A DNA stretch of 64,000 bases from Bacilli bacterium (lineage in GTDB: Bacteria > Bacillota_I > Bacilli_A > RFN20 > CAG-826), in assembly GCA_045631885.1 (NCBI GenBank), contig JAZQVN010000015.1, positions 2,452 to 66,451 on the forward strand. Direction: 5' to 3'. The notes beneath the pieces are model-generated. The model saw nothing but the letters and a program-made list of their open reading frames with translations, was not told where the DNA came from and made no database searches. Positions 32,537 through 49,701 of the stretch are shown here, piece by piece (positions within the stretch are counted from its first letter, which is position 1; each line of letters begins with the position of its first letter). Both the position numbers and the translations under genes were made by a program.

Positions 32537-35500
32537 TTACTTGTTCTTTCTTAACTCTTCGATTAACTTGTATTCGTCTAATGGTTTATAGAAGTGATAA
32601 CCTTGACAGTTGCATCTCTTATCCATGTCTCTTAATAAAACGTATTGGTCAGAGTTTTCAACACCGACGAATGTAATCTTTAAGTCATGTTCTTGAGATA
32701 ACTTGTCTAAGGAAGTAATTTCCGCTAAATGCTTTGGATTAACTTCGATATCACCAACTAAAGAACGGCCAATCTTGATTTCGGTAAATCCTAATGATTT
32801 AACTTGTTCTAATGATAAGTATTCACCAGAATATTGGTCGACAATCAAAGCAATATGGTGATTTAAGATACCTCTAGCGATACCTTTAAATTGATCCATG
32901 TGAGAATAGATTTCTTTTTCCGTAATTTCAAATCCTAAGAAGTCTCTTGGTAAATGATAATTATTGAATAAGTCGAAGATACTTTGGAAGAAACCGGGAT
33001 CATCGAAATATGAGAAGTCTGTGTTCATTGTTAAACGAGTGAAACCAAAGACTTTAAAGATGGTTAAACCATGTTGTTGATATAATTCACCTATGTAATT
33101 AATTAAGGCGTTAGAAATGAGAGAGATCTTGCCGTTTTTCGCGGCGACTTTGATTAACTCGTCGGCATTAAAGACACTATTACGATAGTTATCGGAAAGA
33201 CGGATAAGAATTTCAGCGCCATAGATTGATTTATCATTAGCCCTCACCATTGGTTGAAGAGCAACGGAGAATGTTTTATTACCGAATTGTTCTTCGATGA
33301 CGGATAACATAAATTCATTTCTACTCGCGCTTCTGACATAGTCGCTGTCTGGGAAGTCAATCTTATCTTCATTGATAACAAAGTCCATACTGTTGAAGTG
33401 ACGTAAGGTGTATTTTAAGAAGTCTTCCGCGTTCGCATATTGTTGAGGGAAGGAGTATGGGAGATATGTTCCTTTGAAGGAATAATTTACCCCATTATAT
33501 TGATAATACTTCTTACTGACGTCATAGATCTTTTCAATGAAGTTAACAATATCGATTTGACCAGTTTCTGGTAATAAAATCGCTATTGATTCCGGGCTAA
33601 AATAGAAGATATTCGCATTTTGTTGACGAATTCCTTTGATTTCTTTAATGAATTGTCTAACTAAATATAAATAACCTTCAGAGCCAGCTTCTGCGAGAAT
33701 CGCATCGTGGTTATCGATACGTAAAACTAATAAGTATCCTCTCGCGTTAACTGTGTATAAATTTTCAATTGCTAACTTTAATGAATAATAGGAATTGATG
33801 AGCAAGTCGTTATCAAAACGGTTCGTGGTTTCTTCGCCTTTTTGTAAACGACGGACAAACATTCTGATTAACTTTTGTTTAGAATCATTTAACGTTAAAG
33901 CGGTCTCAAACATGTCGTGCGCGGTCTCACTAATCATCTTCTTATTTGTCTTAAGAGGGCAATTTTGACAAACGCCATCTAAGCCATATAACGCTTTAAA
34001 ACATTTCTCTCCAACTTTGGCTTTTGGGAAGAACGCATTAAAGTGTTGAGAGAAGCTCGTTAAGTCATATGTATTACGATCAATACGATATAAAGCGTAG
34101 TTACTTGTCATCATCACGCTATTGATTTCGCGATACGCTTCACTAATCTTTGAGGCATCATCAGAAAGCATGAAGAAGTCACCAATACGATAAGAAAGGA
34201 TGAACATCGCTTCTCTGATATATGAGTCGATGAATAAGTCTTTATTCTTGTTGAAGAAATAGATGACTGCGACGACGTTTCCTTGGTTATGGACTAAATA
34301 ATAGAAACCACCAGAAACGTTAATCTTATCGAGGAATTTCGCTAACTTATAACCCGCGTGTTTTCTGCTTGCGAAATAGCAGGAATCATCTGGGTCTTTT
34401 GTTTCTTCCATCGCTAAGACGAAGTTCTTATCAATCATCGCGCCTTCTTTAAAGACTTCTTCTTTATCTTTTGAGATATAAAGTAAGGAATAATAAGAAT
34501 CATTAACATCATCTAAAGTAATAACACCGCCAAAATCGATATCGAGATAGGTGATTAAATCTTTAAATGTATTTCTCATTGAATTCAAAGACGCTTCTCT
34601 TTCAGAAGAAGAAACTTTTAATTCCGGTAATTGTCCTAAAATACGGGACATGTTATTTAAGTTCAAAGAATTTTGTAAGATTAAGTTTTCTGATAAGGCT
34701 GTTAAACGATTTGGTAAATAAAGGTTCATTAATTGGCCTTGTCTTTTCGCGTACTGTAAATCTGGGAATAATTCATCGATGTTACTATATGGATAACAGA
34801 CAATAGAGAATCTCGCGTTTATTGTAGATAAACCATCGAATGTCTTCTTCGCGATTGATAAATCTTTCATCGCCGCGGTTAATCTTTCTTGAATATGAGA
34901 GAAAGAATTAATTCTTGGTAAGAAAACATAAAAACCAGTTTGGTTGTCATTTGGAATAAATAAGATATTTGGATATTCTTCAAAATTAAGCGTTAATGTT
35001 GAAATAATGCGTTTAGATTCTTCTTCATTAATCGTATCTTCATCTAAATCATAGAAGACTTCGATAATGACATTTCTAAAGTTTTGGGAACAATAAATTA
35101 AAGAACGAAGTTCACTTTTAAATGATTCCAAAGTAACTAATTTATCTTCTAAAGAGATGTAGTTAAGTGGAATATAAGCTTTAGAAATATCATTAGATAT
35201 CATCGTCGCATTAGAAACGATGGTATTAAAGTTATCTAAATCGGCGTTTAATTTATCAAATTCATCAATTCTGGTGTTGGTTGGGAAGCTCGCTCTAGTT
35301 GGAATGTTGTTAGAGAAGTTTCTTAACATAATTGATGTTGTTTTATATAGACCATCAACATAAGTTTCTTTTAAACGGAAATAAATGATGATTGAAATAA
35401 CGCCATACGCTAAAGATAAAACGAGAACATAAATTCCTGCGATTGTTAAAAATATATCGTTTCCTGTGGAGATATGAAGGTAGCCAAAAATGACAAATCC

Positions 35501-35590
35501 CACGAGGATAAGGATAAGAGCCACTCCTGGAATTAAGAAAGAGAGGAAGAAGCTCGCGGACATTGAGATTTTTTTATTCTTTTTTGCCAT
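32537..35590 (-). CDS. Membrane protein with degenerate GGDEF, GAF-like and degenerate EAL domains (probable c-di-GMP receptor)
   Basis: 2 N-terminal TMs; C-terminal LQP..GAEILIR, FEITE, DQYSGEY (in place of DDFGTGY), VGVE, QGYHFYKP. Start MAKKNKK at 35590. Confidence 0.8.
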   Translation of the reverse strand: MAKKNKKISMSASFFLSFLIPGVALILILVGFVIFGYLHISTGNDIFLTIAGIYVLVLSLAYGVISIIIYFRLKETYVDGLYKTTSIMLRNFSNNIPTRASFPTNTRIDEFDKLNADLDNFNTIVSNATMISNDISKAYIPLNYISLEDKLVTLESFKSELRSLIYCSQNFRNVIIEVFYDLDEDTINEEESKRIISTLTLNFEEYPNILFIPNDNQTGFYVFLPRINSFSHIQERLTAAMKDLSIAKKTFDGLSTINARFSIVCYPYSNIDELFPDLQYAKRQGQLMNLYLPNRLTALSENLILQNSLNLNNMSRILGQLPELKVSSSEREASLNSMRNTFKDLITYLDIDFGGVITLDDVNDSYYSLLYISKDKEEVFKEGAMIDKNFVLAMEETKDPDDSCYFASRKHAGYKLAKFLDKINVSGGFYYLVHNQGNVVAVIYFFNKNKDLFIDSYIREAMFILSYRIGDFFMLSDDASKISEAYREINSVMMTSNYALYRIDRNTYDLTSFSQHFNAFFPKAKVGEKCFKALYGLDGVCQNCPLKTNKKMISETAHDMFETALTLNDSKQKLIRMFVRRLQKGEETTNRFDNDLLINSYYSLKLAIENLYTVNARGYLLVLRIDNHDAILAEAGSEGYLYLVRQFIKEIKGIRQQNANIFYFSPESIAILLPETGQIDIVNFIEKIYDVSKKYYQYNGVNYSFKGTYLPYSFPQQYANAEDFLKYTLRHFNSMDFVINEDKIDFPDSDYVRSASRNEFMLSVIEEQFGNKTFSVALQPMVRANDKSIYGAEILIRLSDNYRNSVFNADELIKVAAKNGKISLISNALINYIGELYQQHGLTIFKVFGFTRLTMNTDFSYFDDPGFFQSIFDLFNNYHLPRDFLGFEITEKEIYSHMDQFKGIARGILNHHIALIVDQYSGEYLSLEQVKSLGFTEIKIGRSLVGDIEVNPKHLAEITSLDKLSQEHDLKITFVGVENSDQYVLLRDMDKRCNCQGYHFYKPLDEYKLIEELRKNK

Positions 35591-35594
35591 ACTC

Positions 35595-36329
35595 TTACTC
35601 CCTAATAATGTCATTACGACCAATATCACCGATACAGGTAACAATCGCTCTACCGACCGCGGAATATTGTTTTAAAACATTGATATAACTATCCGCGTTA
35701 GATGGTTGGTCAATTTGATATTCGACAACTTTCACCGCGATAACCGGAATCGAGTGAATTGTCGCCGCTAAGAAGGCTCCACCACTTGTGCAATCGAAAA
35801 CGACATTAGTCTTATGTCCTAAGACATAATCGTTCATGATAAGCGGCATAATCTTATTAGTTTTATCTAAAATACCATTCGCTGAAATATATGTCGCGAC
35901 TTCGTATCTTGAGAAGCTTCTCTTTTCAAGTGCCGCGGAAATATAACCGATAACTTCATCTTGAGATTCTAATGATCTTGGTAAATGAGGTAATTGACCT
36001 AATTTCACATTAGCCTCTTTAACTTGGTCAACATCCCCTAAAATAACTCTACGAGAAATAACAATATCTCCTGGAAGAGTGTCTTTAGAATAAGAGACAC
36101 ATTTACCAACGACAAAGACTAACACGACGAAGTATTTTTGAATAATGTAATTAGTCACTAAAGAAGAAAGGTAAGAGGTGTATAAATCGTAAACTAAAGC
36201 AACTTCTTGGTTGAAGATGGAACCGTATTCCACTTTCACAAAACCAAAAATCGTATCATCTTTACGGTTAGTCATGACACTTTCGTAATACAAGATGTCA
36301 TCGTGTTTGGATCCGAGAATTAAGATCAT
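35595..36329 (-). CDS. MTA/SAH-nucleosidase-fold (PNP_UDP) protein with degenerate active-site motifs
   Basis: Length and pattern match MTAN (PGDIVIS...D, G..P), but the DME and ISD motifs are replaced by DCT and VVE. Confidence 0.6.
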   Translation of the reverse strand: MILILGSKHDDILYYESVMTNRKDDTIFGFVKVEYGSIFNQEVALVYDLYTSYLSSLVTNYIIQKYFVVLVFVVGKCVSYSKDTLPGDIVISRRVILGDVDQVKEANVKLGQLPHLPRSLESQDEVIGYISAALEKRSFSRYEVATYISANGILDKTNKIMPLIMNDYVLGHKTNVVFDCTSGGAFLAATIHSIPVIAVKVVEYQIDQPSNADSYINVLKQYSAVGRAIVTCIGDIGRNDIIRE

Positions 36330-37876
36330 TTTTCACCAGTCTCCTTTCTTTCAAATTGGTTACTGATAAGGAATTTTTCATATTCTTTATATGGCAAAGC
36401 CTGCGAATAGTAGAACCCTTGAATCGTATTACATTTTAATTTTCTTAAGATATCGACTTGTTCTTTGTTATCGACACCTTCAGCGATAACTTCTAGGTCG
36501 TTAGCGAGACATAATTCGATTAAGAATTTAACAATCGCTCTACTCTTTAAGTCAGTGACGATATCATCGATAAATGATTTATCAATCTTAACCGCGTCAA
36601 AAGGAATCTTTCTTAAGTTACCGATATTAGAGAAGCCAACACCGAAGTCATCCATTAAAACCCTGATACCTCTTTCTCTTAATTTCTTAATAATAGAAAT
36701 AGAGGTAAAGGCATTCGCTCTACTCGTCGCTTCAGTAATTTCAATTTCAATAAATGAAGGGTTGATATGATATGTATCTAAGATTTCCATGATGGAATTC
36801 AAGAATTCTGAAGAATAGAACTCATATAATGAGAAATTAATAGAAACTGGAATAATTCTTCTACCTTTTCTCTTCGCTTCGTTTAAGTCTTCACAAACTC
36901 GTTTAAAAACGAATGTATCGATTTCGTGAATTAAACCTGCGGTTTCAACGATTGGAATAAATTTAGAAGGAGGTAATAAACCATGTTTCTTACTATCCCA
37001 TCTAACTAAAGCTTCCGCGGAAATAAATCTACGGCTTTGTAAATTGAATTTTGGTTGATAGAAAACAACGAATTCGTTATTCTCTAACGCTTGAGTAATT
37101 TCATCGATATCTTCTTTGGAAGATCTTCTTCTGAATGATTCGTGATAATAAGTTAAAGTTTCGAAGTTTCTTTCAGAAACGTTTCTTGCGATACCAGCGT
37201 TTTCAATCGCCTCTAATAATGGGAGATCATCTCTCATTTCCGCGACACCAAAGAATGGTTGAACATAAATATGAATTTGATGTTTTTCTGCGATTTGGAA
37301 AATATTAGAGGAAATCTCATCGACTAATTTTCTAATATCGTGTTCATCATCAGTAAAGACATAAAGAAGGAACGCTCCACGATTGAAACAAGCGACACGG
37401 TCACTTCTTCTTCTCCTCTTCTTTTTATCAGTGTAATGGAGAATTTCTTTTAAATAAGAAGCGATTCTCGCATTTAATAATGTAATCGAGTCATCTCTAT
37501 TCGCGTTCTGCATTGTCACTAAGTTTGCCGCGGTTAAGGCGATGACATATTGTTTCTTTTTATTTAAACGTCTATTTTTCTTTAAAGCGAAAACTCTCGC
37601 AGAGAAAGCAGGAATACCAAAGAACGCGGTATTCTCACCTAAGTTATATAAGTTTTCACTTCTTAATGATTTAATTGATGTTGCGATGGATAAATATCTT
37701 GAGAAGAAATAGACATACAAGATAGATGTTCCAGGAATTAAGCTTAATAAAATAAAGTTAATGAAAATTGGCACATCAAGGCCAAGGGCTAAAATCAAAA
37801 TCAAAGCGACAAAGCTAGAAACGAAAATCGCACCTGAAATAATTGATAATATCAAATACACTCTTTTGTTTGGCAT
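36326..37876 (-). CDS. Membrane-bound degenerate-GGDEF / intact-EAL c-di-GMP phosphodiesterase
   Basis: YQPK, AEALVRW, EITE, DDFGVGFS, KIDKSF, AEGVD, QGFYYS. Confidence 0.9.
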   Translation of the reverse strand: MPNKRVYLILSIISGAIFVSSFVALILILALGLDVPIFINFILLSLIPGTSILYVYFFSRYLSIATSIKSLRSENLYNLGENTAFFGIPAFSARVFALKKNRRLNKKKQYVIALTAANLVTMQNANRDDSITLLNARIASYLKEILHYTDKKKRRRRSDRVACFNRGAFLLYVFTDDEHDIRKLVDEISSNIFQIAEKHQIHIYVQPFFGVAEMRDDLPLLEAIENAGIARNVSERNFETLTYYHESFRRRSSKEDIDEITQALENNEFVVFYQPKFNLQSRRFISAEALVRWDSKKHGLLPPSKFIPIVETAGLIHEIDTFVFKRVCEDLNEAKRKGRRIIPVSINFSLYEFYSSEFLNSIMEILDTYHINPSFIEIEITEATSRANAFTSISIIKKLRERGIRVLMDDFGVGFSNIGNLRKIPFDAVKIDKSFIDDIVTDLKSRAIVKFLIELCLANDLEVIAEGVDNKEQVDILRKLKCNTIQGFYYSQALPYKEYEKFLISNQFERKETGEK

Positions 37877-38811
37877 TATTTCTTTCCTTTCCGATTCATC
37901 ATCTCTTCTAACATCTCGCGTTTTAATCTCTCTTTATCCGCTTCGCTGAGTCCATCTAAAGAGCCACCAGAGGAACCACTTGAATTTCCTCCATTACTAT
38001 TATTATCACTCGTTGATGAATTTTCTTCATCAGGTTCTTTAATAGCTTTGAAAATATCTAAGACACTGGTGATAACTAAATAGAAGGCTGGGACTAATAA
38101 AAATACTAACAAACCCCATGGAGAAGAAATAAACCCAAAGAAGCCACCTAAGACATTACTTTTGATTTTAACAACCCCTAATAGCTCTTTTTCTGTAAAG
38201 GCTTGGTATTGACCAAATTGGGATTGGTGTTCACTGGCTCTATTGATACCAGCGACGATGAAGATGTATCTTCCGCTTCCTTCTTCTTTTTCTGGGTGAT
38301 ATTGAATTTCTTGAAGTCTGTGGGTAATGACTTGATTGATATTCATCGTTCTTTCATAGTAATCATGATTTTGTGGAGCGTCCGCTTGTCCGGAATAGCA
38401 ATCCATAAATGTCATATCAATCTTATTACCTTGTAAATAGGAATTATAAATGTCCGCTGGATTATCTTTATGGGTGATAATCGCAATACCAATTGGATAA
38501 GAATCGCTTTCATCAGTGACATTGACCATGGAGTCTGTTTGAATCACGAAACTACCATAGTTATAAGTGAATGTATGACCATAATTCTTATCTTTATCAA
38601 TCATGCCCATTACTTGGCCGATAGCGACGAAAAGGAAAAGCGCGGTGAAAAGACCAGTGATTGTCCATTCAAGAATAATACGAACTTTGCTCTTCTTTTT
38701 CTTTTTTGGTTCTTCACTAGTTGGTTTAACTTCTTGGGCTACTTCGGTTTCTTGACCGCTTAATCCAGGAACTTCTTCACTAACGACTTCTTTTTCTTCT
38801 TCTAACATCAT
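37876..38811 (-). CDS. SipW-like (ER-type Ser/His) signal peptidase I
   Basis: TM, then FVIQTDSM (Ser), VITHRL (His), LLGVV...LGGFFGFISSPWG, second TM. Confidence 0.75.
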   Translation of the reverse strand: MMLEEEKEVVSEEVPGLSGQETEVAQEVKPTSEEPKKKKKSKVRIILEWTITGLFTALFLFVAIGQVMGMIDKDKNYGHTFTYNYGSFVIQTDSMVNVTDESDSYPIGIAIITHKDNPADIYNSYLQGNKIDMTFMDCYSGQADAPQNHDYYERTMNINQVITHRLQEIQYHPEKEEGSGRYIFIVAGINRASEHQSQFGQYQAFTEKELLGVVKIKSNVLGGFFGFISSPWGLLVFLLVPAFYLVITSVLDIFKAIKEPDEENSSTSDNNSNGGNSSGSSGGSLDGLSEADKERLKREMLEEMMNRKGKK

Positions 38812-41717
38812 AATTTCACTACTTTACCACCAAATTGTTTTTTGATTTGATTTGCTTCGTTAAAATCATCGAATATATGAGCGTCATGTTTGGAATGAGA
38901 GTAATTTTCATTACCGACATAATATCCCATATTGGTTTTAACGATAAATTTACCAGGTATCTTTTCTAATACTTCTTCCTCTTCTTGAGGAACTGGCTCT
39001 TGAACTGGTTTTTTCTTTCTACCAGCGCCTGAACGAGCGCCACCCCAATTCTTCTTATTCGCGGATTCAGATTCTTCTACATCCGCTTTCTTTTTACGAC
39101 CAGCGCCTGCGCGGGAACCACCCCAATTCTTTCTAACAGGATGTTCTTCGTCTTGTTGATCGTTATCAGTTTCTTCGATTACTTTTTTCTTACGACCTGC
39201 ACCAGCGCGAGATCCTCCCCAGGACTTCTTCACTGGTTCAGCGTTATCTTCTTCTGGTTGTTCTTCAGAAACTTCCTCTATTGGTTCTTCTATATCTTGA
39301 GGTTCTTCCTCTATTGGTTCTTCCTCGATTGGAGCCTCTTCGATAACTGGCTCTTCTTCAATTGGGGTTTCCTCAATAATCGGTTGTTCTTCTACTGGTT
39401 GAACCTCCTCGATGATAGGTTCTTGTTCTTCGACGACTTCTTCATTTACAGGTTCTTCATCAGAAACTTTCTTCTTTCTACCCGCACCTGCACGAGAACC
39501 GCCCCAAGACTTCTTGACTGGTTGTTCTTCGTTAGATTCCTCTTGGGCCACTTTCTTTTTACGGCCTGCGCCTGAACGTGCGCCACCCCATGATTTCTTC
39601 ACAGGTTCGACTTCGTTATTTTCTTCAGCAGGAACTTCTTCAACTGGAGTTTCTTCTAGTTCTTGAGATTCTTCAACCGCTGGTTCTTCTTCGCTAACAA
39701 CTTCTTCTTCAACAGGAGATTCTTCCGCAGGAATTTCTTCTTCTACTGGTGGAATATCTTCCGCTATTTCAGGTTGTTCTTCTTCATTATTTTCAATAAT
39801 TGATGGGGTTTCTGCTGGAATTTCTTCGTTTTCTACAGGATTTTCGTCAATTTGTTCTTCTTGAATTGCGTCTTCGATTAACGCTCTTCTCGCTGCCTCT
39901 AGTTCATCTTCATTAGAAGGTTCTTCTTGAGGAGCTTCTTCAACTTCTTCAGAAGGTTGCTCGTCAACGATTTCTTCAACTGGTGATTCTTCTTCCGTTA
40001 GAGACTCTTCGATGGTTTCAGGTTCTTCAACTTGAGCCTCTTCGACTGGGTGAACTTCTTCTTCGATAGGAGCTTCCTCTACTTGTTGAGGTTCTTCAAC
40101 GGCAGGTTGTTCTTCCTCGACTGGAGCTTCTTGAACTTCTTCAACAGGGGTTTCTTCTACACCTTCCTCAACTGGTGATTCTTCTATTTCTTCGCTAACT
40201 TGTCCTTCTGAAATAGTTTCTTCAACCACTTCTTCTTGAGGTTGTTCTTCAGAGATTTCTTCCTCTTCAATTGGAAGTTCTTCGTTATATTCGGCTTCGT
40301 AATAATCATCAATAGTTGGGAGATCTTCTACCTCTGGTCTACTAACTGGAGATAATTCTTCAACTGGGTGATTAGATAAAGCTTCTTCGATGAGTTGTCT
40401 TCTAACATCATCAATTCTTCTTTCTTCAGCGAGTCGAATAGCTTCTTGTTCTCTAGCGATTCTTTCCGCTTCTTCTCTTTCTCTTTGAGCGATAATTGCT
40501 CTTGCTCTTTTATCAAATTCCGCTTTATCTTTTCTCTTGCGTTTTTCTAACTTATCTAACGCGGCTTTTTCCACTTTACGGATATTCTTTTCTTCGATTT
40601 CTTCTTCGTAATATTCTTTCTCAATCTTAGTTGGGTGAGGTGGAATATCTTTCTTTAATTGAGAATCGAGATAATCTTGATATCCTTGGTCAATACGTAA
40701 AAATTCGATTGGACCTTTTAATAAGTCACCATAGATAAATTCCTCATCATCAAGTGAGGTAAGTATTCTTGGTTTATATGTACGAGAAAATCCCTTCGTG
40801 GTGACGGATTTGCTCTTACCTTTTAAGGCTAAATAGTTTGTGAACATCACTGTGTTGAGTTCATTTAATTCTTCATCAGTGAAAATAGAGGCATCTTCAT
40901 CAATCTTGAAAGACACACCTAAATGGTCATATCTTTCTAAGAATTTATATAAACGATAACAGTGGTTATATTTTGGGTTCTTTCTTAGGATGTTAGTCAT
41001 GACGATTGGATTACGGACATCTCTTTCTGTCTTTAATTCCTTCATGAACTTAGAACCATAAAAATACATAACGTATTCTCTAATCTTTAAAATACGTTCA
41101 ACCGCTTTATTGGACATATCCGCGGCTTTCGTGTCGGATGGAGATTTGACTTTGATCTTAGTTTCAATTTCAACTTCCGCGCCTTCCACCATCGCTTTGG
41201 TTTTATAATATAAAATTTCTTCATCGTGTAAGATGGAGAAGTTTTTGACGAATTCATATCTCTTTTGAATGAATAAAACTAATCTTCTTACTAAAGTAGC
41301 AATAAATCTATTTTCATAAGTATGAATATCTTCTTCACTACCGATATTTAAGATTTTATTAGGAACGACGTCTCCGTCTTCTTTAACTTCTTTGATGTAT
41401 TGGGTGTGGCTTGCTAAATGTTGAACAGATTCAGCACCTGTTTTTCTCGCTAATTCGACAGGGACAATATTTGTCACTGTTTTTGTAGTTTCTCTCGGAT
41501 TAGCGATAATTTCACCTAAATCATAAATACAATCTTCAATCTCTTTAATCCATGAGAAATCGAAGTTAGAGTTTTCTAATCGGTCAATTCTCATGTAAGA
41601 GTTTTTGCCACTAGAAAGAGACGCGAAAATCTCGGAGGCTCTTTTCTCCTTTTTAATGGAGTCCATCTTTCCGAGATATTTTTTAAATAACGCTGCGTTC
41701 TTTCTGTTATCGGCCAT
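38808..41717 (-). CDS. DUF2357 (McrC-type N-terminal) protein with a coiled coil and an acidic disordered tail carrying 5 WGGxRxGAGRKKK repeats
   Basis: IIxNPR, SVQHLASH, TYENRF, TNILRKNPKY..CY.LY.FL; no PD-(D/E)xK nuclease domain recognisable. Confidence 0.75.
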   Translation of the reverse strand: MADNRKNAALFKKYLGKMDSIKKEKRASEIFASLSSGKNSYMRIDRLENSNFDFSWIKEIEDCIYDLGEIIANPRETTKTVTNIVPVELARKTGAESVQHLASHTQYIKEVKEDGDVVPNKILNIGSEEDIHTYENRFIATLVRRLVLFIQKRYEFVKNFSILHDEEILYYKTKAMVEGAEVEIETKIKVKSPSDTKAADMSNKAVERILKIREYVMYFYGSKFMKELKTERDVRNPIVMTNILRKNPKYNHCYRLYKFLERYDHLGVSFKIDEDASIFTDEELNELNTVMFTNYLALKGKSKSVTTKGFSRTYKPRILTSLDDEEFIYGDLLKGPIEFLRIDQGYQDYLDSQLKKDIPPHPTKIEKEYYEEEIEEKNIRKVEKAALDKLEKRKRKDKAEFDKRARAIIAQREREEAERIAREQEAIRLAEERRIDDVRRQLIEEALSNHPVEELSPVSRPEVEDLPTIDDYYEAEYNEELPIEEEEISEEQPQEEVVEETISEGQVSEEIEESPVEEGVEETPVEEVQEAPVEEEQPAVEEPQQVEEAPIEEEVHPVEEAQVEEPETIEESLTEEESPVEEIVDEQPSEEVEEAPQEEPSNEDELEAARRALIEDAIQEEQIDENPVENEEIPAETPSIIENNEEEQPEIAEDIPPVEEEIPAEESPVEEEVVSEEEPAVEESQELEETPVEEVPAEENNEVEPVKKSWGGARSGAGRKKKVAQEESNEEQPVKKSWGGSRAGAGRKKKVSDEEPVNEEVVEEQEPIIEEVQPVEEQPIIEETPIEEEPVIEEAPIEEEPIEEEPQDIEEPIEEVSEEQPEEDNAEPVKKSWGGSRAGAGRKKKVIEETDNDQQDEEHPVRKNWGGSRAGAGRKKKADVEESESANKKNWGGARSGAGRKKKPVQEPVPQEEEEVLEKIPGKFIVKTNMGYYVGNENYSHSKHDAHIFDDFNEANQIKKQFGGKVVKL
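39008..39602 (-). repeat. Five intragenic repeats encoding (K/R)K(S/N)WGG(A/S)R(S/A)GAGRKKK
   Basis: Visible directly in the translation of 38808..41717. Confidence 0.9.
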
Positions 41718-41722
41718 AAATA

Positions 41723-43240: not shown

Positions 43241-43260
43241 AATTTTGTTTCTTCCTTTCT

Positions 43261-44382
43261 TTATTGACCAGTGTGCTCAGCAATCTTGAAGTTGAGTCTC
43301 ATATCGAAGCTTCCACCCATGTGGGAGTTGATACAATCCATATCCCAACCTTCCATATAAATCGCTAAGACGAATTCTTTCATTTCTCCACCTTTGACTT
43401 GAAGGCTGAACTTATCTTCAACCTCTGCTCTTGCTAATGAATCTTCTTTTTTAATCTCTAAGCCGTTTTCTAAAGATTCATCAAGTAAGAATGGGTGGAC
43501 ACCCGCTTTGGTTTTCGCGGCGAATGAAGTATATTCTTTTGGAGCCTCGCTATCAGTATCACTGGCTTCGCCATATACCGCGAGGTTTCTATCATTTACT
43601 TCACCATATATTACTTCGTAATACTCATCATCAGTATCATTTCGATATGAATCATAATATGTCGTTGAAAACAAATCTTCTCTTCCTCCAAGGAGTGTTT
43701 CTTTATCCTTGTAAGGATCAATTACTGTGAATTGATATGTTTCTTCATCCGGATCTAATATTGCAATACGCATACAATTGGTTAAGTTGTTTAATTGTTT
43801 AATTACATCTTCAACGATTTCTTCGTGAGTGTATTCCGGATGTTCAACTGCGTATTTTTCTTTGATACCTTCAGTATCCGCGAGCATCCTCGCTCTTTGT
43901 TCATTTAATCTTCTAATTGGAGAGATGAATAAGTTTTCTTCGGATGCATCGAGAGTAACTTTTGTATCGGCATTACAATATAAATATAAATGCTGGGTGT
44001 AATAACCCCAGTTTGACACACGCTCCCTAGGCGCGCGCGTTAAAGAATCAACTAGTGCGGAATCGTATTCATAGAATACTGGGTCACTAGCTTTCTCGTC
44101 TATCCATTTTGATTTAAACATCGTACTTATCGGTTTAAATAAATCTGTTCCCGGTAGTTGCGATTCTGGATCGTCGAAGTTGAATTTAAGTGTTTCCGTT
44201 AATGCACTATACTCATTTGTGGTCGCAATTCTTAATTCACGAGACCCAGAAACATTAATAACTAATGTATCAATGTATAAATTCTCAGAGGAATTATACC
44301 AAGCAAAAGACAAAGATAAGCTCAACGCCGCTAAGCCAATTGAGCCTACTAAACTTGTAGTAATGAGTCTTTTAAAGTTCAT
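43261..44382 (-). CDS. SipW-type signal peptide fibre subunit (TasA/CalY-like)
   Basis: Signal peptide ending LSFA/WYN; CMRIAI; C-terminal IYMEGWD. Confidence 0.7.
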   Translation of the reverse strand: MNFKRLITTSLVGSIGLAALSLSLSFAWYNSSENLYIDTLVINVSGSRELRIATTNEYSALTETLKFNFDDPESQLPGTDLFKPISTMFKSKWIDEKASDPVFYEYDSALVDSLTRAPRERVSNWGYYTQHLYLYCNADTKVTLDASEENLFISPIRRLNEQRARMLADTEGIKEKYAVEHPEYTHEEIVEDVIKQLNNLTNCMRIAILDPDEETYQFTVIDPYKDKETLLGGREDLFSTTYYDSYRNDTDDEYYEVIYGEVNDRNLAVYGEASDTDSEAPKEYTSFAAKTKAGVHPFLLDESLENGLEIKKEDSLARAEVEDKFSLQVKGGEMKEFVLAIYMEGWDMDCINSHMGGSFDMRLNFKIAEHTGQ

Positions 44383-44387
44383 AATTC

Positions 44388-45569
44388 CTAACTGACTAAG
44401 TTAATCTGGAATTGTAGTCCTAAGTTAAAACCGTGCGATAATTCTTCGTCGATAACAGTATGATCCCAACCTTCGAGCCAAATCACGGCATCGAGTTCCG
44501 CTAAAGCGTTAGTGTCTTCCGCGGTAACACACACAGGTGTACCACCACTTAATCTACCATTAACGTCATTTGGAGCGATTGTTTTCAATGTTTTATATTG
44601 AGCTGTGCCTAAAGTAAGGCCAGTATAGTCTTCATAACATGTATTGCCTCTACCATGCTTTGCATAAAATGTAGAGTGTTCGGTTGATTTGGCGATAACG
44701 CCATCAAAAACAACACCATTGATGTTTTCTAAACCACTATCACTAGATGGGTTTTGTGTAAAAGTATTAGTTCCAGAACCAGTGTAATCACCATAAATGA
44801 TTTCTTGATGTTCATCATCAAAATCATAAAGTTCATCTCTGTTTAAATCTAAACAGCCAGCAACTGTGGTAACACCATCGATATTACCGGTATCGCTTGG
44901 ATTTAAAATGAATTTATTTGCTGTGCTAGAACTTGAGAAATAAACTCTAATTCCCTTATAAACTTGAGAATCAACATTAGTAGAGCTAGCGGCAACATCA
45001 ACATCACTTAACCATAAGTTTTGTCCACCGACATATTCCTTAGTTGAGCCAGATGTTGGCTTGATGATTCTAAATACAAATGGAATTGAAACATATTTAA
45101 ATGTTTCAGCATCATTTTCATTAACTCTACTTCCCGCAACTAATGTGTTATAAAGATTGAAATTATTAGCACCAGTCACATAAGTGCGACTTGTAACAGG
45201 ACACAATTCAGTTGTCGCATAAGTACCTTCTTGAGCAAGATATGTAGAAATCGCATTGGCTGGTAATCCACCGCCTGGCTCAGCAAAATAATATCTGATT
45301 GTCTTGCCATCTTCGACTTTGGTTAAGTTATTGTCGATTGTTAATCCAACACCGGTTAGTGCTGCCATTTGATCACTATCGAAGTCGGTAGTTTTCAAAC
45401 CGATTTGTAATTGAGCACTTGTGGTAACGGATGTACCTTGGTAAGACACAGAGACTCTTGTTGAATAAGCCCACCAAGCCATAGAACCGCTAATTGAACC
45501 CACAAAAGCTGCGAGTGTAACTAAGCCAATTCCGACTGGTAATAAACGCCATTTCATATTGGTCTTCAT
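44388..45569 (-). CDS. SipW-type signal peptide fibre subunit
   Basis: SISGSMA/WWAYSTR; LCPVTS; GIRVYF; IWLEGWD. Start MKTNMK at 45569. Confidence 0.75.
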   Translation of the reverse strand: MKTNMKWRLLPVGIGLVTLAAFVGSISGSMAWWAYSTRVSVSYQGTSVTTSAQLQIGLKTTDFDSDQMAALTGVGLTIDNNLTKVEDGKTIRYYFAEPGGGLPANAISTYLAQEGTYATTELCPVTSRTYVTGANNFNLYNTLVAGSRVNENDAETFKYVSIPFVFRIIKPTSGSTKEYVGGQNLWLSDVDVAASSTNVDSQVYKGIRVYFSSSSTANKFILNPSDTGNIDGVTTVAGCLDLNRDELYDFDDEHQEIIYGDYTGSGTNTFTQNPSSDSGLENINGVVFDGVIAKSTEHSTFYAKHGRGNTCYEDYTGLTLGTAQYKTLKTIAPNDVNGRLSGGTPVCVTAEDTNALAELDAVIWLEGWDHTVIDEELSHGFNLGLQFQINLVS

Positions 45570-45609
45570 GCGTGTTTCCTTTCTTTTTATTTTTTTAATA
45601 GATTTTTTT

Positions 45610-45650
45610 GCCAAGGGCAAAGTCGCGCTTACGCGATATTGCCCTTAGCA
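45610..45650 (-). terminator. Intergenic hairpin (attenuator or mRNA stabiliser) after the 45683 subunit
   Basis: AAGGGCAA-aGTCGCG-ctta-CGCGAT-ATTGCCCTT inverted repeat. Confidence 0.5.
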
Positions 45651-45682
45651 TTGTCGTATCTATTTTTTGTGTTTACTAAAGA

Positions 45683-46816
45683 TTAATGATTTTCGTGAGC
45701 TTCAGCTGAGAATCTGATGCCAACGTTGAATTGAGCACCAATTGTGCTATCTGTAGTGTTGGAAGAATTCCATAAAGCACTACCACCGAGTTGTTGCCAA
45801 CCTTCGAGATAAATAACTAAGTCGACTTTTAAAGTATTGGAAGCAGTAGCTGTACCAATTGCAGTACCGGTAATGTCATATGGATCACTGTCATCAGCAA
45901 CACCGAGAACATCACTTGTAACTGGTGTAATAGCGGTTGATTCTGCGACTGGAATTTCATATTCTTCCCAAGAAGAACCATTGTATTGATAGAACTTGTC
46001 ACCTGTGACGTAAGCGATATCATCAGCAGCGGCTTCTAAAGCATTTCTGGCTTCTTCGTTAGCGACTTCAACGAATGATTCGCTTGTACCATAAAGAATT
46101 TGTTTGCCAGATTGCCAACTGAATGTATTTGTTTTGTCCATTTGGCTGTCATTATTTAAGTCTAAAGCACCAGCAACTTCAACATCATCACCTGTTTTGG
46201 AGAATGTTGCGTATTGTGTTAATGCGTTTGCATCTGTTCCTGCGCTAACGCCTAAACGTAAAGCGTTGGAAACATCAGCTCTAGCTGGGTTTGTGGTTTC
46301 TGCTTCTAAAGCAACTGCGGAAACATAAATGTCCTTTTCTAACATAGTGACATTTGCTCCACCATCGACGTCTTTAACACGGAGTTCTAATGGAATGACA
46401 ACATAATCTTCAGTGGCTGTTGCTGCACCCCATGTAGATTGAGCACCGTATTGATAAATTGGGTTTCTGTAAAATGTGGATGCGACTTCGCCTTCAGCTA
46501 ATTCACCAGAAGTAACTGGATGTAAATCAGTTGCGTTGTTACGTTCTGCACCACCGCTAGCGATTTCTGTTGTTAAATAAGATGCGATTACGCTAGCTGG
46601 TAAATCACTTCTCCAACCAAATGTGGCTTCATCACTACTTCTAACTCTAATTTCTAAAGCTTCTGTACAGTGTGCGGCTGTACCAGTGAATTCAGCTGTT
46701 GCACGTGTGGAATATTGATACCACGCGACAGATCCTGAGATTGATCCTGCTAAAGCAGCACCCATCGCAAGAGCTAATGTCGAAACTATAATTTTCTTTT
46801 TATTACTTGTTTTCAT
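45683..46816 (-). CDS. SipW-type signal peptide fibre subunit
   Basis: SISGSVA/WYQYSTR; LHPVTSG; ALRLGV; IYLEGWQ. Confidence 0.75.
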   Translation of the reverse strand: MKTSNKKKIIVSTLALAMGAALAGSISGSVAWYQYSTRATAEFTGTAAHCTEALEIRVRSSDEATFGWRSDLPASVIASYLTTEIASGGAERNNATDLHPVTSGELAEGEVASTFYRNPIYQYGAQSTWGAATATEDYVVIPLELRVKDVDGGANVTMLEKDIYVSAVALEAETTNPARADVSNALRLGVSAGTDANALTQYATFSKTGDDVEVAGALDLNNDSQMDKTNTFSWQSGKQILYGTSESFVEVANEEARNALEAAADDIAYVTGDKFYQYNGSSWEEYEIPVAESTAITPVTSDVLGVADDSDPYDITGTAIGTATASNTLKVDLVIYLEGWQQLGGSALWNSSNTTDSTIGAQFNVGIRFSAEAHENH

Positions 46817-47621
46817 AAGCGTTAATTGTAACTCCTAATTTTAGATTTGCACCTTCAGGTGCTTCACCTTGTGCTTGAGGATCATTACCCTCGAGCCAAG
46901 CGACTATTGTGTATCTTTTAGATTCACCTGGTAAGAAAGTTGGATCTGGAATTGTCGCAACTACTTCTGGACTTTCGAATGGTTCCGCAAACGCTGGGAA
47001 TGGATTTGTCGCAGAATCGAACCCATAAGACAGGTATTCTTTATACGTTGTGTCTCCATAACCGGTTTGATTTGGGGTTTCACTCTTTTTCGCGTACACA
47101 GTGTACTTGTGTTCGTCTATAGTTGGATCATTCTGATAAACCATAACTCTGAGAATTTGATCTAGGTATCTGATACCGTATCTGTCAGAGATAGCTGGTT
47201 CATTCTTCGTGATGTTGACTTTTACTTCGTAATTAGCTGGTATTGAACCATCATTTTTAATGAAGAATGTGTACTTGAAGTATTTCATTACTTCATTACC
47301 GAAGCTGTCTTTTTCAACTCCGTAATCCACACCATGTTTATCATTATCGATGTTCTCGCTTGATGGAAGCCTTTCGTAGGTTTCTAAATCAAATGGCGGT
47401 AAGGTATCGATTTTGATGTAGGATGTTGGATCTTCGAATTGAGAAGTCTTATAAAGTGATAATTTAACGGATCCGGTATTTAACGCGACTGTAAATGTGC
47501 CTGTGTACTTACCAAGAAATGCTACCAGGACAAACATTCCAATACCTGCAGATGCAACTGCTGTAAGGATTCCTGCTAGTTTTTTTCTTTTCCGTTTTTT
47601 TACATACTCCAATTCGACCAT
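46803..47621 (-). CDS. Fibre-subunit paralogue with an N-terminal membrane anchor
   Basis: KKRKRKK followed by a TM; YTFFIKNDG; ILRVMV; IVAWLEGNDP. Lacks the A/W cleavage signature. Confidence 0.65.
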   Translation of the reverse strand: MVELEYVKKRKRKKLAGILTAVASAGIGMFVLVAFLGKYTGTFTVALNTGSVKLSLYKTSQFEDPTSYIKIDTLPPFDLETYERLPSSENIDNDKHGVDYGVEKDSFGNEVMKYFKYTFFIKNDGSIPANYEVKVNITKNEPAISDRYGIRYLDQILRVMVYQNDPTIDEHKYTVYAKKSETPNQTGYGDTTYKEYLSYGFDSATNPFPAFAEPFESPEVVATIPDPTFLPGESKRYTIVAWLEGNDPQAQGEAPEGANLKLGVTINAYENK

Positions 47622-47680
47622 AGATGAATTTTTTGCCCTAAAAGATCAAAGGGCGATAATTTGTCCCATGGAACTGATAC

Positions 47681-47809
47681 AAAAAGCCAGTGCCTATCAT
47701 CCAATACATTGGCGGGATTGTTCAGTCCCTAAGGCAACTGGCTATCTTATTATAATAAGACCCTTTAGTTTTGCGACCTCATATTGCTATGAGTGTGCTT
47801 TTTTCTCGC
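47681..47809 (-). promoter_or_regulatory. Cyclic-dinucleotide riboswitch class I (GEMM-I), A20 variant, with terminator expression platform
   Basis: GCGA...AAAAAAGCACACTCATA-GCAA-TATGAGGTCGCAAAACTAAAGGGTCTTA...TAAGATAGCCAGTTGC. The aptamer 3' end can pair with AGGCACTGGCT, which is followed by TTTT. Confidence 0.85.
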
Positions 47810-47813
47810 ATAC

Positions 47814-47843
47814 ATCCTAACACAACTAGTCAAATCGTGTCAA
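47814..47843 (-). promoter_or_regulatory. Sigma-A promoter of the fibre operon
   Basis: TTGACA-18-TAGGAT with TG extension, immediately upstream of the aptamer. Confidence 0.7.
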
Positions 47844-47959
47844 CCCCTTCTTTTTTTATTATAAAAAAACATAAATTAGTCATTTCAAAATATTTAGAAC
47901 GAATCAATAAAAAACCACTTTTTGTGGTAAAAGGTAAAAAAATAACAACCAATCGGTCG

Positions 47960-48328
47960 CTATTCTTTTTTATCTCCAGGATTTGATCCGTTTTGTAGAT
48001 CTCTTAATAATTCTTGTCTTAAGGCTTCTTTTTGTTCATCTGATAAGTCATTGACTTTAACAGGACCTTTTTGAGCGGTCTTCTTAACGTAGATAACTAA
48101 TCCAATAATATTAGCCGCGAGTAATACGAATAATGGAAGAACGAAACCTAAACCATAAACCATTGGGTTTTTCATTAAGAAACCAATGAAACCTTCAGCG
48201 TTTTCAATATCCGCTGCGCTCTTACCTGCCGTATTCGCGAGCATGATAATACTTAATACGAATAAAAACACTGTGATAGCGACATCAAGTGCGATAAGGG
48301 TAATAAATAGTGGTTTTTTATTTTTCAT
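47960..48328 (-). CDS. Small 2-TM membrane protein
   Basis: Two TMs; C-terminal LSDEQKEALRQELL helix resembling the tail of the signal peptidase. Confidence 0.7.
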   Translation of the reverse strand: MKNKKPLFITLIALDVAITVFLFVLSIIMLANTAGKSAADIENAEGFIGFLMKNPMVYGLGFVLPLFVLLAANIIGLVIYVKKTAQKGPVKVNDLSDEQKEALRQELLRDLQNGSNPGDKKE

Positions 48329-48500
48329 AGGTTCGTTTTTTTCGCTTGTAGTATATATTATATCATCAAATCAACTTTGAAAATGATTTTTTTAAAGACT
48401 TTGTCTTAATTTTCTAGCGATATGACTCTTATATAATAAAGGCTTAAAAAAATAAATCAAATAAAAATATTTTTCGTAGGGCAAAAAGTTAACAAAGTGT

Positions 48501-48531
48501 AAAAAAACACCCCGGTTTCCCGAGGTGTATT
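48501..48531 (-). terminator. Intrinsic terminator of the 48550 subunit gene
   Basis: ACACCTCGG-gaaa-CCGGGTGT followed by a T-tract on the minus strand. Confidence 0.7.
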
Positions 48532-48549
48532 TGTTTGTTTATTGTTTAA

Positions 48550-49527
48550 TTATGCAGTAACAGCAGCACCTGTTCTTGCGTAGAATTTCATAGATCCTTC
48601 AATTTCGTAAATATCATTTGTTGAAAGAACGTTTTCATCAGAACCTTCTAACCAAGCAACAATTGTAACTGTTAATGTAACTTGATCACTTGCGTTTTTG
48701 TTCTTATAAAGAACAGTGCCTAAGTAATCAGCACGATCATCAGCTGTTGAAGTGGCTAAGCCATCAACGGCTAAACCACTAGTGAGTGTTGAGTTGTTTG
48801 TAGCATAATCGTTAGCGATTAAAACGGAATCTGAATAAGTTGAATATGTAGATGCTCCACCAGCATATCCTTCACATTTTGCTTCTGTTTCCATTGGAGC
48901 CCAAACTTTTTTGGCGGTTGGAGAAGCGGCAGGAGCAAGCATAGCGAATCTCATACCTTTAGAAACGCTTGCGGTTCCAGAGTTGTCTGTAAGTTTATCG
49001 CCATCAGCCATTGTGGAATTAACTTCATCAAAGAAGATATGGACATCGTGGTCGTCACCACCGAATGTGTATGTAATTTGAACATCCCATGTAACTGCAT
49101 AATAATATGCGTTTGTAGCAGTTGAACTAACTTTATAGTTAGCAGAAGTGCGAGATCCGTCTGTGCCTACTGCAACGAAAGATGTTTTATTAACGCCAGA
49201 AGCAGCTTCACTAACTGCAGCGTTGTCTGTGTATAAAACATCATTAACATGATCATATGAAGCATCTGTTAAGATAGCTTTATCTGAACTGCCAGCATTC
49301 CAGAATTGAATCATATCATTTGTGTTGGTCTTTGTGCCGGCCTTTGTACCAATGCCAGCGACACAAACTGCAGATAAGTTACCATCAACAGAGCCAACTG
49401 TGAATTTATCAACAAATGTATTGTATGTTCTATTCGCGGTGAACCATGCAACGGTACCGGAGACTGAAGCAGCGGTTGATAAGAGCAATAAGCCAAGAGC
49501 AGGAACTATAATTTTTGATTTTTTCAT
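48550..49527 (-). CDS. SipW-type signal peptide fibre subunit (probable major subunit)
   Basis: SVSGTVA/WFT (GTxAWF signature); GMRFAM; IVAWLEGSD; strong SD AAGGAG; own promoter and terminator. Confidence 0.8.
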   Translation of the reverse strand: MKKSKIIVPALGLLLLSTAASVSGTVAWFTANRTYNTFVDKFTVGSVDGNLSAVCVAGIGTKAGTKTNTNDMIQFWNAGSSDKAILTDASYDHVNDVLYTDNAAVSEAASGVNKTSFVAVGTDGSRTSANYKVSSTATNAYYYAVTWDVQITYTFGGDDHDVHIFFDEVNSTMADGDKLTDNSGTASVSKGMRFAMLAPAASPTAKKVWAPMETEAKCEGYAGGASTYSTYSDSVLIANDYATNNSTLTSGLAVDGLATSTADDRADYLGTVLYKNKNASDQVTLTVTIVAWLEGSDENVLSTNDIYEIEGSMKFYARTGAAVTA

Positions 49528-49701
49528 AATTTTTTAAAGTTCTCCTTAGTATAAACGACAAAAATCATCCAATTAAATTCTCTTTATTTAACTGAATGGA
49601 TGATAGATACTTTTGCATCGCATGTCGCCAATAAGGATGGGACTTCCTGATCGCTTTCGCTTTGCATAATTATTTTAATCTTATTTTTATTTTTTAAGCA
49701 A
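49528..49701 (-). promoter_or_regulatory. Promoter and structured ~135-nt 5' leader
   Basis: TTGCTT-18-TAAAAT; GC-richer leader; hairpin at 49564-49604 followed by TTTT. Confidence 0.5.

Follow-up and report, generated by a model that had tools for sequence, protein, structure and literature searches.

A 64,000-nucleotide (nt) stretch of DNA from a Bacilli bacterium (assembly GCA_045631885.1, contig JAZQVN010000015.1, positions 2,452 to 66,451; here called the window) carries ten tightly packed open reading frames (ORFs) on its minus strand (47621-32537), behind a promoter-like site and a cyclic di-GMP (c-di-GMP)-I aptamer. The evidence points to a c-di-GMP-induced, SipW-processed, TasA-like fiber that is assembled or anchored in the membrane with the help of a GTPase derived from McrBC, and we give this reading a probability of about 0.6. 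Confidence is moderate that the product is a TasA-like polymer and low to moderate for the precise role of the motor. The locus is a member of the CoCoPALM class, a combination that Bell et al. (eLife 2024) named in one paragraph of the main text, which assigned no function and deferred the analysis to a later paper; it is no new kind of system. An earlier sequence-only reading of the window had proposed one fiber system, undescribed so far, with DNA handling among the possible tasks of its motor. The single conserved system has held up, with the TasA fiber as the best, if modest, structural match of the subunits; the claim of novelty has not, and the role in DNA handling has little support.

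Four subunit genes open the operon: subunit 1 (47621-46803, 272 amino acids [aa]), subunit 2 (46816-45683, 377 aa), subunit 3 (45620-44388, 410 aa), and subunit 4 (44382-43261, 373 aa). They are followed by genes for a McrB-like AAA+ protein (43240-41723, 505 aa), a McrC-like DUF2357 protein (41717-38808, 969 aa), a SipW/Sec11-type signal peptidase I (38811-37876, 311 aa), a predicted transmembrane (TM)-anchored EAL phosphodiesterase (37876-36326, 516 aa), a protein of the methylthioadenosine/S-adenosylhomocysteine (MTA/SAH) nucleosidase fold (36329-35595, 244 aa), and a membrane protein with a degenerate C-terminal EAL domain (35644-32537, 1,035 aa). These and all other window features given below lie on the minus strand. 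At most junctions, neighboring ORFs either overlap (by 14, 4, 1, and 4 nt) or are separated by 5, 20, and 5 nt. The sole long gap, 62 nt between genes 2 and 3, contains a 30-nt hairpin (45644-45615; RNAfold), which extends over the TTG called as the start codon of subunit 3 and has no U-run after it. At the last junction, between genes 9 and 10, the overlap is 50 nt if the TTG-started ORF is taken; an internal Met 18 codons downstream is a better match to the N-terminal consensus of the orthologs and would give a 4-nt gap. A terminator-like hairpin with a 9-bp stem and a T-run (32460-32439) closes the operon. This anatomy agrees with the sequence-only reading, whose gene labels were all verified except for a GGDEF domain in the last gene. 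The promoter that it had proposed, a sigma-70-like TTGACA-18-TAGGAT with an upstream TG (47843-47814), is present as a consensus match only, of a kind not enriched over shuffled sequences across the region; it is argued for by its position 5 nt upstream of the aptamer. Contigs of 140 to 340 nt from a bovine-gut metatranscriptome (X1) covered pieces of seven operon genes at 90 to 99% identity, with DNA carry-over possible, and three other RNA runs (X2 to X4) gave only 20- to 35-nt matches, mostly in a low-complexity acidic repeat.

The gene order is widely conserved. Among sampled genomes of the host's order, 130 of 201 had a GTPase match at E≤1e-10, often several per genome. About 20 kb around the match was taken from 20 genomes of six families, and ORFs were called and labeled by blastp. 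The DUF2357 gene directly followed the GTPase gene in all 20 loci, a SipW-type gene stood at +2 in 17, an EAL gene at +3 in 16, and a nucleosidase-like gene at +4 in 12; a subunit-1 homolog lay upstream in 15. A wider scan of species-representative Bacillota genomes gave at least 575 matching stretches, from which 80 loci were kept, 51 of them of at least 12 kb and 49 with a called GTPase ORF; genes were labeled with custom hidden Markov models (HMMs). Of these 49 loci, 43 had DUF2357 within two genes downstream of the GTPase, 40 had a SipW-type gene of more than 170 aa within five genes downstream, and 28 had a second SipW-type gene immediately upstream. Members of the subunit-1 family lay within seven genes in 39 loci; an EAL protein was encoded in 26 and the nucleosidase-like protein in 12. 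The record titles named rumen and gut Bacilli and Erysipelotrichaceae metagenome-assembled genomes, Candidatus Enteromonas, Acholeplasmataceae, Izemoplasmatales, and Anaeroplasmataceae, as well as Ruminococcus (including isolate FC2018), Oscillospiraceae, Lachnospiraceae, and other Clostridia. Because the two samples overlap (L034 and L069 are apparently the same locus) and relatives are not independent, these counts describe conservation and were not turned into a statistic. Across the phylum, 86 of 399 sampled genomes, which represent 46 of 172 genera and are all 0.8 to 2.4 Mb in size, had a GTPase homolog at E≤1e-40; three large families in the sample gave no match (0/54, 0/89, and 0/48). 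A large protein database held more than 8,000 relatives of the GTPase, many of them 73 to 91% identical.

The host genome itself contains a second locus on another contig (C13:75736-85871; L135:1737-11872; minus strand). It begins with genes for a small TM protein, a subunit-1-like protein (299 aa), a subunit-4-like protein (375 aa), and a McrB-like protein (514 aa, 49% identical), and continues with genes for a DUF2357 protein (460 aa, lacking the acidic repeats), a SipW-like protein (280 aa), an 820-aa membrane protein, and a TasA-like subunit (294 aa). Neither a c-di-GMP-I aptamer at this locus nor a Pfam match for four of its proteins was found. The linkage of the AAA+/DUF2357 pair to fiber genes, a check suggested by the sequence-only reading, recurred in 20/20 and 43/49 loci and at the paralogous locus, with a peptidase gene downstream in 17/20 and 40/49; in nearly all of the related loci examined, the pair stood between subunit and peptidase genes. 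We hold with high confidence that the genes form one conserved c-di-GMP-linked system of the CoCoPALM kind and no stray restriction module.

The aptamer (47809-47730) matched the Rfam c-di-GMP-I family (GEMM-I, RF01051) over the full model (positions 1 to 87) with 63.4 bits (gathering score, 35; E = 4.7e-10), which confirms the riboswitch class proposed from the bare sequence. In the minimum-energy fold of the leader (RNAfold), AGCCAGUUGCC (47743-47733), which lies within the aptamer, pairs with GGCACUGGCU (47694-47685), followed by U5; this terminator hairpin of about -23 kcal/mol with its U-run makes up the expression platform (47743-47680). Since the 5′ arm of the terminator is inside the aptamer, bound ligand would deny this arm to the terminator, and we infer that the leader is an ON switch in which c-di-GMP relieves termination. 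A terminator 5′ arm within the aptamer is the usual build of ON switches. Among 29 related leaders, a hairpin and U-run with the 5′ arm starting inside the aptamer 3′ end were found in 23, one of them doubtful; the hairpin lay further downstream in three and was lacking in three.

A custom covariance model, built from the three c-di-GMP-I aptamers of the host genome, gave 19 matches in the 20 same-order loci; in 13 of the 20, an aptamer immediately preceded the gene that opens the operon. In the wider sample, 32 of 51 loci had matches, 42 altogether and without exception on the GTPase strand, and in 18 loci the aptamer stood directly before a subunit-1 family gene. All nine custom-model matches in seven distant loci were confirmed by Rfam (51 to 66 bits). 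Tandem c-di-GMP-I aptamers precede system genes at L084:6018-6203, L077:1909-2146, L111:20750-20972, and L133:5312-5518; Rfam scored the L084 pair at 63.6 and 59.8 bits. The other two aptamers of the host genome (69.2 and 67.4 bits) are on contig C28 (86894-98407; locus L134), and each heads a pair of genes for proteins of about 355 to 378 and 1,444 to 1,488 aa. All four proteins have a G-T-F-A/S-W-F signal type, and Pfam assigned them to no family; their likely role is that of giant adhesins, with the same peptidases processing them. All three c-di-GMP riboswitches of the host thus head predicted SipW-type exported proteins.

The four operon subunits have a fifth relative upstream, subunit 5 (49527-48550, 325 aa), whose gene is not part of the riboswitch unit and is followed by a strong terminator of its own (48528-48507). 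All five start with a basic N terminus and a hydrophobic helix, and all five contain the motif [WYF]-[LMI]-[ED]-G-x-D about 30 residues from the C terminus, the W/Y-L/M-E-G-x-D element that had been noticed earlier as WLEGxD. In subunits 2 to 5, the helix is directly followed by an A-W-F/Y site. Subunit 2 has the SipW-type signal ..GSVAWYQY and the C-terminal motif YLEGW, subunit 3 has ..GSMAWWAY and WLEGWD, and subunit 4 has ..SFAWYNS and YMEGWD; the subunit-5 family HMM matched subunit 2 at 7e-6 and subunit 3 at 1e-8 (12-sequence database). Subunit 1 lacks the A-W-F/Y site and consists of a basic N terminus, a long TM helix, and a beta-sandwich. It is encoded by the first operon gene in most related loci, and subunit 4 always adjoins the GTPase gene in the window's clade. 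Relatives of subunit 5 numbered 563 cluster representatives at E≤1e-3. A27-W28-F29 was invariant in 130 of these relatives, and the SipW-dependent signal model TIGR04088 matched 16 of the 130 weakly (best, 0.0049) and the window protein itself not at all.

An AlphaFold2 model of subunit 5 (130-row alignment; pLDDT [predicted local distance difference test] score, 85.7; predicted template modeling score, 0.82) had a disordered signal region, an extended N-terminal segment, and a beta-sandwich. Its best match in the PDB was the TasA fiber 8aur_A (Foldseek E = 1.5e-3; VIA Z = 7.4, root mean square deviation [rmsd] = 4.8 over 165 residues). The next matches, the Sulfolobus 0406 filament, TLP-1a/b, Pyrobaculum bundling pili, and CanA, are all donor-strand filaments. 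In the model of subunit 1 (81 rows; pLDDT, 92.5), helix 5-39 runs straight into strand 41-48, and the top PDB match was again 8aur_A (Z = 6.7, rmsd = 3.5 over 141 residues). A TasA-like fold is likely for the subunits on the strength of these models, as the sequence-only reading had supposed. When the subunit-5 and subunit-1 families were compared profile to profile, the alignment was confined to the C-terminal motif (38 columns; probability, 58%). A trimer prediction for mature subunit 5 (residues 28 to 325) scored 0.00, which bears neither way on polymerization.

The peptidase gene belongs to a family at the same position in related loci, 18 of 19 members of which matched NF046067 (SipW) and 16 of 19 matched TIGR02228 (archaeal-type signal peptidase I); the sole non-SipW member was an ABC ATPase from a divergent locus. 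TIGR02228 had no match in the host genome at E≤0.01, so the window peptidase is too diverged for this model. The best PDB match of the family was SEC11A (2.7e-10), and the Ser box TDSM and His box THR were nearly invariant in the alignment. The window protein ends in a C-terminal TM helix with a conserved charged tail. The idea that it might be the general signal peptidase of the cell was dropped, because a bacterial-type signal peptidase I is encoded elsewhere in the host genome; the SipW-type enzyme is therefore taken as an extra, dedicated copy. In 28 of 49 loci (Clostridia and Acholeplasmatales-type genomes; e.g., L076, L085, L097, L105, L110, L118, and L126), two SipW-type genes flank the McrB/McrC-like pair. 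In the seven upstream and six downstream copies that were read, the Ser, the His, and a G-D-N/A box are all present, and the charged tail follows the pattern EE-I-K-R-R-A-I/V-EEYL. Of the two genes, only the downstream one occurs in the window's clade.

A small two-TM protein, also predicted earlier, is encoded upstream of the operon (48328-47960), with its own terminator-like hairpin after the gene, and is conserved upstream in related loci. Its tail (..LSDEQKEALRQELLRDL..) resembles that of the peptidase (..LSEADKERLKREMLEEM..). A SipW-tail HMM matched the small protein at 0.0033, the second best of 2,797 ORFs in its own genome, and the full SipW HMM matched it at 1.3e-7 (12-sequence database); Pfam and NCBIfam gave no family for it. 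The two tails may be a shared docking motif, a resemblance that we treat as a lead only, since the tail is low in complexity.

The 505-aa McrB-like protein matched Pfam AAA_5, and all three PDB matches of a 21-ortholog profile were E. coli McrB (E = 2e-7). Walker A (GISGTGKTS), a McrB-like Walker B (VLDEMNLAR), and N-x-D-D were invariant in 21 sequences, and the protein is probably a GTPase. In the sensor sequence GTANNDDST, the N-x-D-D aligns with MNTAD of E. coli McrB (HMMER); the sequence also fits NxxD, and it is by motif pattern that it is assigned to the NxD clade. The N terminus comprises about 55 net-acidic residues, one long hydrophobic helix, six clustered basic residues, and a heptad-like charged stretch, and the succession of TM helix and heptad-like charged segment is conserved. 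FtsB/DivIC was not found by hmmscan in the N-terminal 150 to 161 aa of five members, the method of Bell et al. being more sensitive.

In the 969-aa McrC-like protein, the DUF2357 N-domain was the only Pfam domain (E = 1e-5), with no nuclease family, and it was matched in 19 of 21 orthologs. No DNA-binding domain was found in either member of the pair, and the N terminus of the GTPase has a TM segment. The McrC-like protein continues into a long, acidic and charged tail of low complexity and ends in a small C-terminal domain (GKFIVKT..GYYVG..), which recurs in L042. Charged tails of variable length are general among the DUF2357 proteins, which range from 459 to 2,247 aa overall. Between residues ~700 and 900, the window protein has WGGxRxGAGRKKK repeats (five by regular expression, six by eye as KKSWGGxRxGAGRKKK) among acidic repeats rich in E, P, and V. 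The basic repeats look like AT-hooks, and they did not occur in any of 21 other DUF2357 proteins examined. The DNA-handling role raised by the sequence-only reading has little support from them, as they are peculiar to the DUF2357 protein of this genome.

Three further operon proteins have a putative part in c-di-GMP or ligand sensing or turnover. The 516-aa protein matched Pfam EAL at 1.5e-69 and contains EAL, N, ExxE, DDFG, KxD, EGV, and QG, which we take to be the catalytic motifs; it is predicted to be an intact, TM-anchored phosphodiesterase. For the 244-aa protein, a 13-sequence profile matched PDB 4qez_B at 3.4e-30, which places it in the MTA/SAH nucleosidase fold family. The catalytic Asp presumably is that of the ..SD.. 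motif; the enzyme's SD aligns with EY here, and the Asp column holds Y, T, N, or other residues in 13 orthologs. Enzymatic activity is doubtful because this column is not conserved, and the earlier label of a degenerate nucleosidase was apt. In the 1,035-aa protein, Pfam EAL matched residues 784 to 1021 (2.2e-33), and its PDB profile matches were EAL domains only. Two metal-binding Asp residues are missing, DDFG reading DQYS and KID reading KIG, and residues 633 to 1008 aligned weakly with a LapD model. The protein has two TM helices separated by a 7-residue loop and a cytoplasmic middle of about 680 aa with no recognized domain. By its sequence it is a candidate c-di-GMP receptor. Its former label as a GGDEF-EAL tandem was not confirmed, as GGDEF was not detected by Pfam, by the PDB profile, or among the 12 GGDEF matches of the genome. 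Near residue 560, within this middle part, stands a conserved Cys motif, C-x10-C-x2-C (consensus GxxCxKxLYGxDxPCxNCPLKTG over eight orthologs), which may be a metal site.

Further upstream, 3.4 kb from the operon, lies a MASE6-GGDEF diguanylate cyclase gene (52105-51017; Pfam GGDEF, 2.4e-30; MASE6, 8.8e-6) with an intact GGDEF motif. It is a possible local source of c-di-GMP and a candidate member of the system. Two overlapping ORFs of 135 and 145 aa (50750-49967), neither with a Pfam match, lie between it and subunit 5. Three tRNA genes are clustered at 17843-17565.

The host assembly is 1.5 Mb in size and 95% complete. In this draft genome there was no match to a penicillin-binding protein transpeptidase and only one Mur-ligase-like match, a result suggestive of a Mollicutes-like host without a wall. 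Such a host would offer a fiber no peptidoglycan to be fixed to, so that an anchor in the membrane becomes attractive. One T2SSE-type ATPase is encoded on contig C1.

Taken together, these data are consistent with the following mechanism. At high c-di-GMP, the ligand-bound aptamer would keep the 5′ arm of the terminator, allowing read-through into the operon. Subunits 2 to 5 would be exported by Sec, tethered by their SipW-type signal anchors, and cut by the dedicated peptidase just before the invariant W-F/Y. Cleavage would free the N-terminal strand for donor-strand polymerization, as in TasA and BsaA. Subunit 5, which has its own promoter and terminator, is the likely bulk subunit, and subunits 2 to 4 would be minor, tip, or adaptor subunits. 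Subunit 1 would stay uncleaved and anchor or terminate the fiber at the membrane, a role proposed because it has no cleavage motif and its long TM helix, as modeled, runs into the first strand. A membrane platform made of the McrB-like ring and its McrC-like activator would link GTP hydrolysis to the passing on of subunits, to peptidase action, or to anchoring of the fiber, probably by way of the conserved charged tails that the peptidase and the small TM protein have in the cytoplasm. The intact EAL enzyme would lower c-di-GMP and so provide negative feedback, and the degenerate-EAL protein and degenerate nucleosidase might serve as ligand sensors that tune the machine. In its fullest form the proposal is a good deal more tentative, and we think it somewhat doubtful: McrB/McrC would have been rebuilt as a GTP-driven membrane engine that assembles and anchors a third kind of Gram-positive filament, a TasA-like donor-strand polymer, working with endoplasmic reticulum (ER)-type peptidases through coiled-coil tails. 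It would substitute for sortase and wall anchoring in wall-less Bacillota and would be a direct output of a c-di-GMP ON riboswitch with a built-in phosphodiesterase brake.

Several observations weigh against a TasA-like fiber with a McrBC-derived motor. The similarity to TasA is modest, the Z values of 7.4 and 6.7 both lying under the tool's caution line of 8, and because of this the fold is graded as likely and not as settled; for subunit 1, moreover, the TasA match was effectively tied with unrelated beta-sandwiches (Z = 6.2 to 6.3). None of the five subunits matched Pfam Peptidase_M73/TasA or any other Pfam or NCBIfam family, nor did Peptidase_M73 match any of the 130 subunit-5 relatives. 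The window peptidase matched the SipW model NF046067 weakly (5.9e-5). The Asp of its GDN box, presumably important in SipW, is lost: the window protein reads G-I-N and, together with its seven closest relatives, fits G-I/T-N, and more distant relatives keep GDN. The relationship to McrC comes from the Pfam hit, and a PDB sequence-profile search with the DUF2357 N-domain alignment returned chance-level rows only, with no McrC among them. The orientation of the GTPase, with the N terminus outside and the GTPase domain inside, is predicted from the positive-inside rule, and the non-cleavage of subunit 1 and the contacts of the platform are likewise read from sequence. Co-transcription, for which the sequence-only reading had looked to metatranscriptome reads, gained contigs on seven genes, none of which bridged a junction. 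Finally, some of the wider loci lack one or more parts, and the locus of the cultured Ruminococcus sp. strain FC2018 has the GTPase, McrC-like, and SipW genes and no subunit-1 family gene within seven genes.

The moderate strength of the TasA fold match also leaves room for another account, in which the subunits form a processed coat or are monomeric adhesins and the McrBC-like pair is a nucleotide-gated regulator, responding to GTP or, via partners, to c-di-GMP, that licenses SipW cleavage or release. The three putative ligand-sensing or turnover proteins in the operon would suit such a regulator, as would the finding that the McrC N-domain plugs the McrBC ring and mainly controls the GTPase rate (Bell et al. 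2024). This account is harder to reconcile with five paralogous subunits that share an N-terminal strand-plus-cleavage motif and a C-terminal motif, with the division into one separately transcribed and four operon subunits, which resembles major and minor pilin sets, and with the fact that the top five structural neighbors of subunit 5 are all donor-strand filaments. We consider it unlikely, while giving it more weight than any explanation that puts the motor to work on DNA.

One explanation of the latter type is a DNA-handling machine, such as an uptake, extracellular DNA-binding, or competence-like fiber, whose McrBC-derived motor acts on nucleic acid. The motor does descend from a DNA translocase, and the basic WGGxRxGAGRKKK repeats of the McrC-like protein look like AT-hooks; these repeats, however, were found in 0 of 21 other DUF2357 proteins, the TM segment of the GTPase stands where McrB has its DNA reader, and the conserved parts yielded no nuclease or other DNA-binding domain. 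A competence pilus could, besides, be served by the separate T2SSE-type ATPase. Such a machine is very improbable. Slighter still are the chances that the McrB/DUF2357 pair is an independent defense module that merely happens to lie inside a fiber operon, for which family ancestry is the sole argument: the pair lacks a nuclease or DNA-binding domain, the GTPase is TM-anchored, the two genes lie 5 to 20 nt from their neighbors inside a riboswitch-headed unit, and their position between subunit and peptidase genes is kept in 20/20 and 43/49 loci and at the paralogous locus; no PADLOC scan was made for this comparison.

A c-di-GMP-controlled TasA-like fiber with a GTPase motor would matter in several ways. 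In the current view, TasA-type fibers assemble by themselves outside the cell and need no energy source, a view that a conserved nucleoside triphosphatase (NTPase) wired into TasA-like loci would change. Such an NTPase would likewise clearly exemplify the recruitment of a defense motor for work at the cell surface. Since the system is common (86/399 genomes in the phylum sample, and also records from Ruminococcus, Oscillospiraceae, and Lachnospiraceae), it probably shapes the adhesion and biofilm behavior of many uncultured gut and rumen bacteria. The riboswitch regulon, with three aptamers in a 1.5-Mb genome that has 12 GGDEF matches, offers a simple experimental handle.

Among known systems, the tapA-sipW-tasA operon of Bacillus subtilis, sipW-tasA-calY of Bacillus cereus, and sipW-bsaA-bsaB-bsaC of Clostridium perfringens (PMC11580942) likewise place a dedicated ER-type peptidase beside paralogous secreted subunits, which have a signal ending in G-T-x-A/aromatic and a TasA-type sandwich with an N-terminal donor strand, as the window subunits probably do. 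As far as these operons are described in the sources consulted, they encode no NTPase and are not riboswitch controlled. The window subunits, unlike TasA, CalY, and the Bsa proteins, match no TasA/Peptidase_M73 sequence model. For C. perfringens BsaA, strand exchange on the still signal-anchored monomer was proposed to precede SipW cleavage, and secretion of BsaA oligomers was reduced in mutants of type IV pilus ATPases, with the pilus genes being encoded elsewhere (PMC11580942); in the window, by contrast, the NTPase is part of the locus itself. The McrBC type IV restriction system shares with the window pair the AAA_5 GTPase, the Walker B DExN-x-A-R, the sensor motif, and a DUF2357 partner immediately downstream. 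It differs in that the window pair is membrane anchored, lacks a DNA-reading N-domain and a PD-(D/E)xK nuclease, and stands in a nondefense neighborhood. Type IV and Com pilus sets offer a working analogy, in that each arrangement would combine one major subunit and four minor ones with its own leader peptidase and with a cytoplasmic NTPase sitting at a membrane platform, all induced as a unit. Their protein families are unrelated to those of the window, however, and the window locus has no PilC-like platform protein; its peptidase would cut on the outer face, past the hydrophobic segment and not before it.

Riboswitches for c-di-GMP are known to precede adhesin and pilus genes, as in the Clostridioides difficile regulon (PMC6200980) and before cap in Bacillus thuringiensis, where the riboswitch is a tandem one (PMC4759541). 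The arrangement of a riboswitch before surface genes, including tandem aptamers such as those of L084, is the same in our system; the effector genes are others, and the reports as consulted mention no McrBC-like or SipW component. The 1,035-aa protein resembles LapD-type receptors in being a membrane protein with a C-terminal EAL domain that lacks the metal-binding Asp residues, and in its weak LapD match over residues 633 to 1008; it differs in having no periplasmic domain and in its cytoplasmic middle of about 680 aa.

The closest counterpart is CoCoPALM itself. In the relevant literature matches, this name occurred only in Bell et al. and its preprint, and no functional study of the present McrB/SipW/TasA-like/c-di-GMP riboswitch system was found in the literature searched. 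Bell et al. (2024) connect this clade of GTPases with the assembly of pili; their main text contains neither TasA nor c-di-GMP, and the supplementary tables may list neighboring genes. Three of the four features stated there for CoCoPALM were found in the window: a McrB-like GTPase with the shortened NxD signature, which often has a D or E after it (here N-x-D plus a second D), a nuclease-less DUF2357 McrC homolog with a coiled-coil or charged tail, and adjoining genes of the signal peptidase family. The fourth is fusion of the GTPase to an FtsB-like TM and coiled-coil segment; a TM helix with a heptad-like charged stretch is present here, and homology to FtsB was not reproduced by hmmscan. 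Relative to that paragraph, the present analysis adds TasA-like subunit families with a modest fold signal, a conserved, apparently ON-type c-di-GMP-I leader, a host that is likely wall-less, the module of EAL, nucleosidase-like, and degenerate-EAL proteins, and the distinction between two-peptidase and one-peptidase variants.

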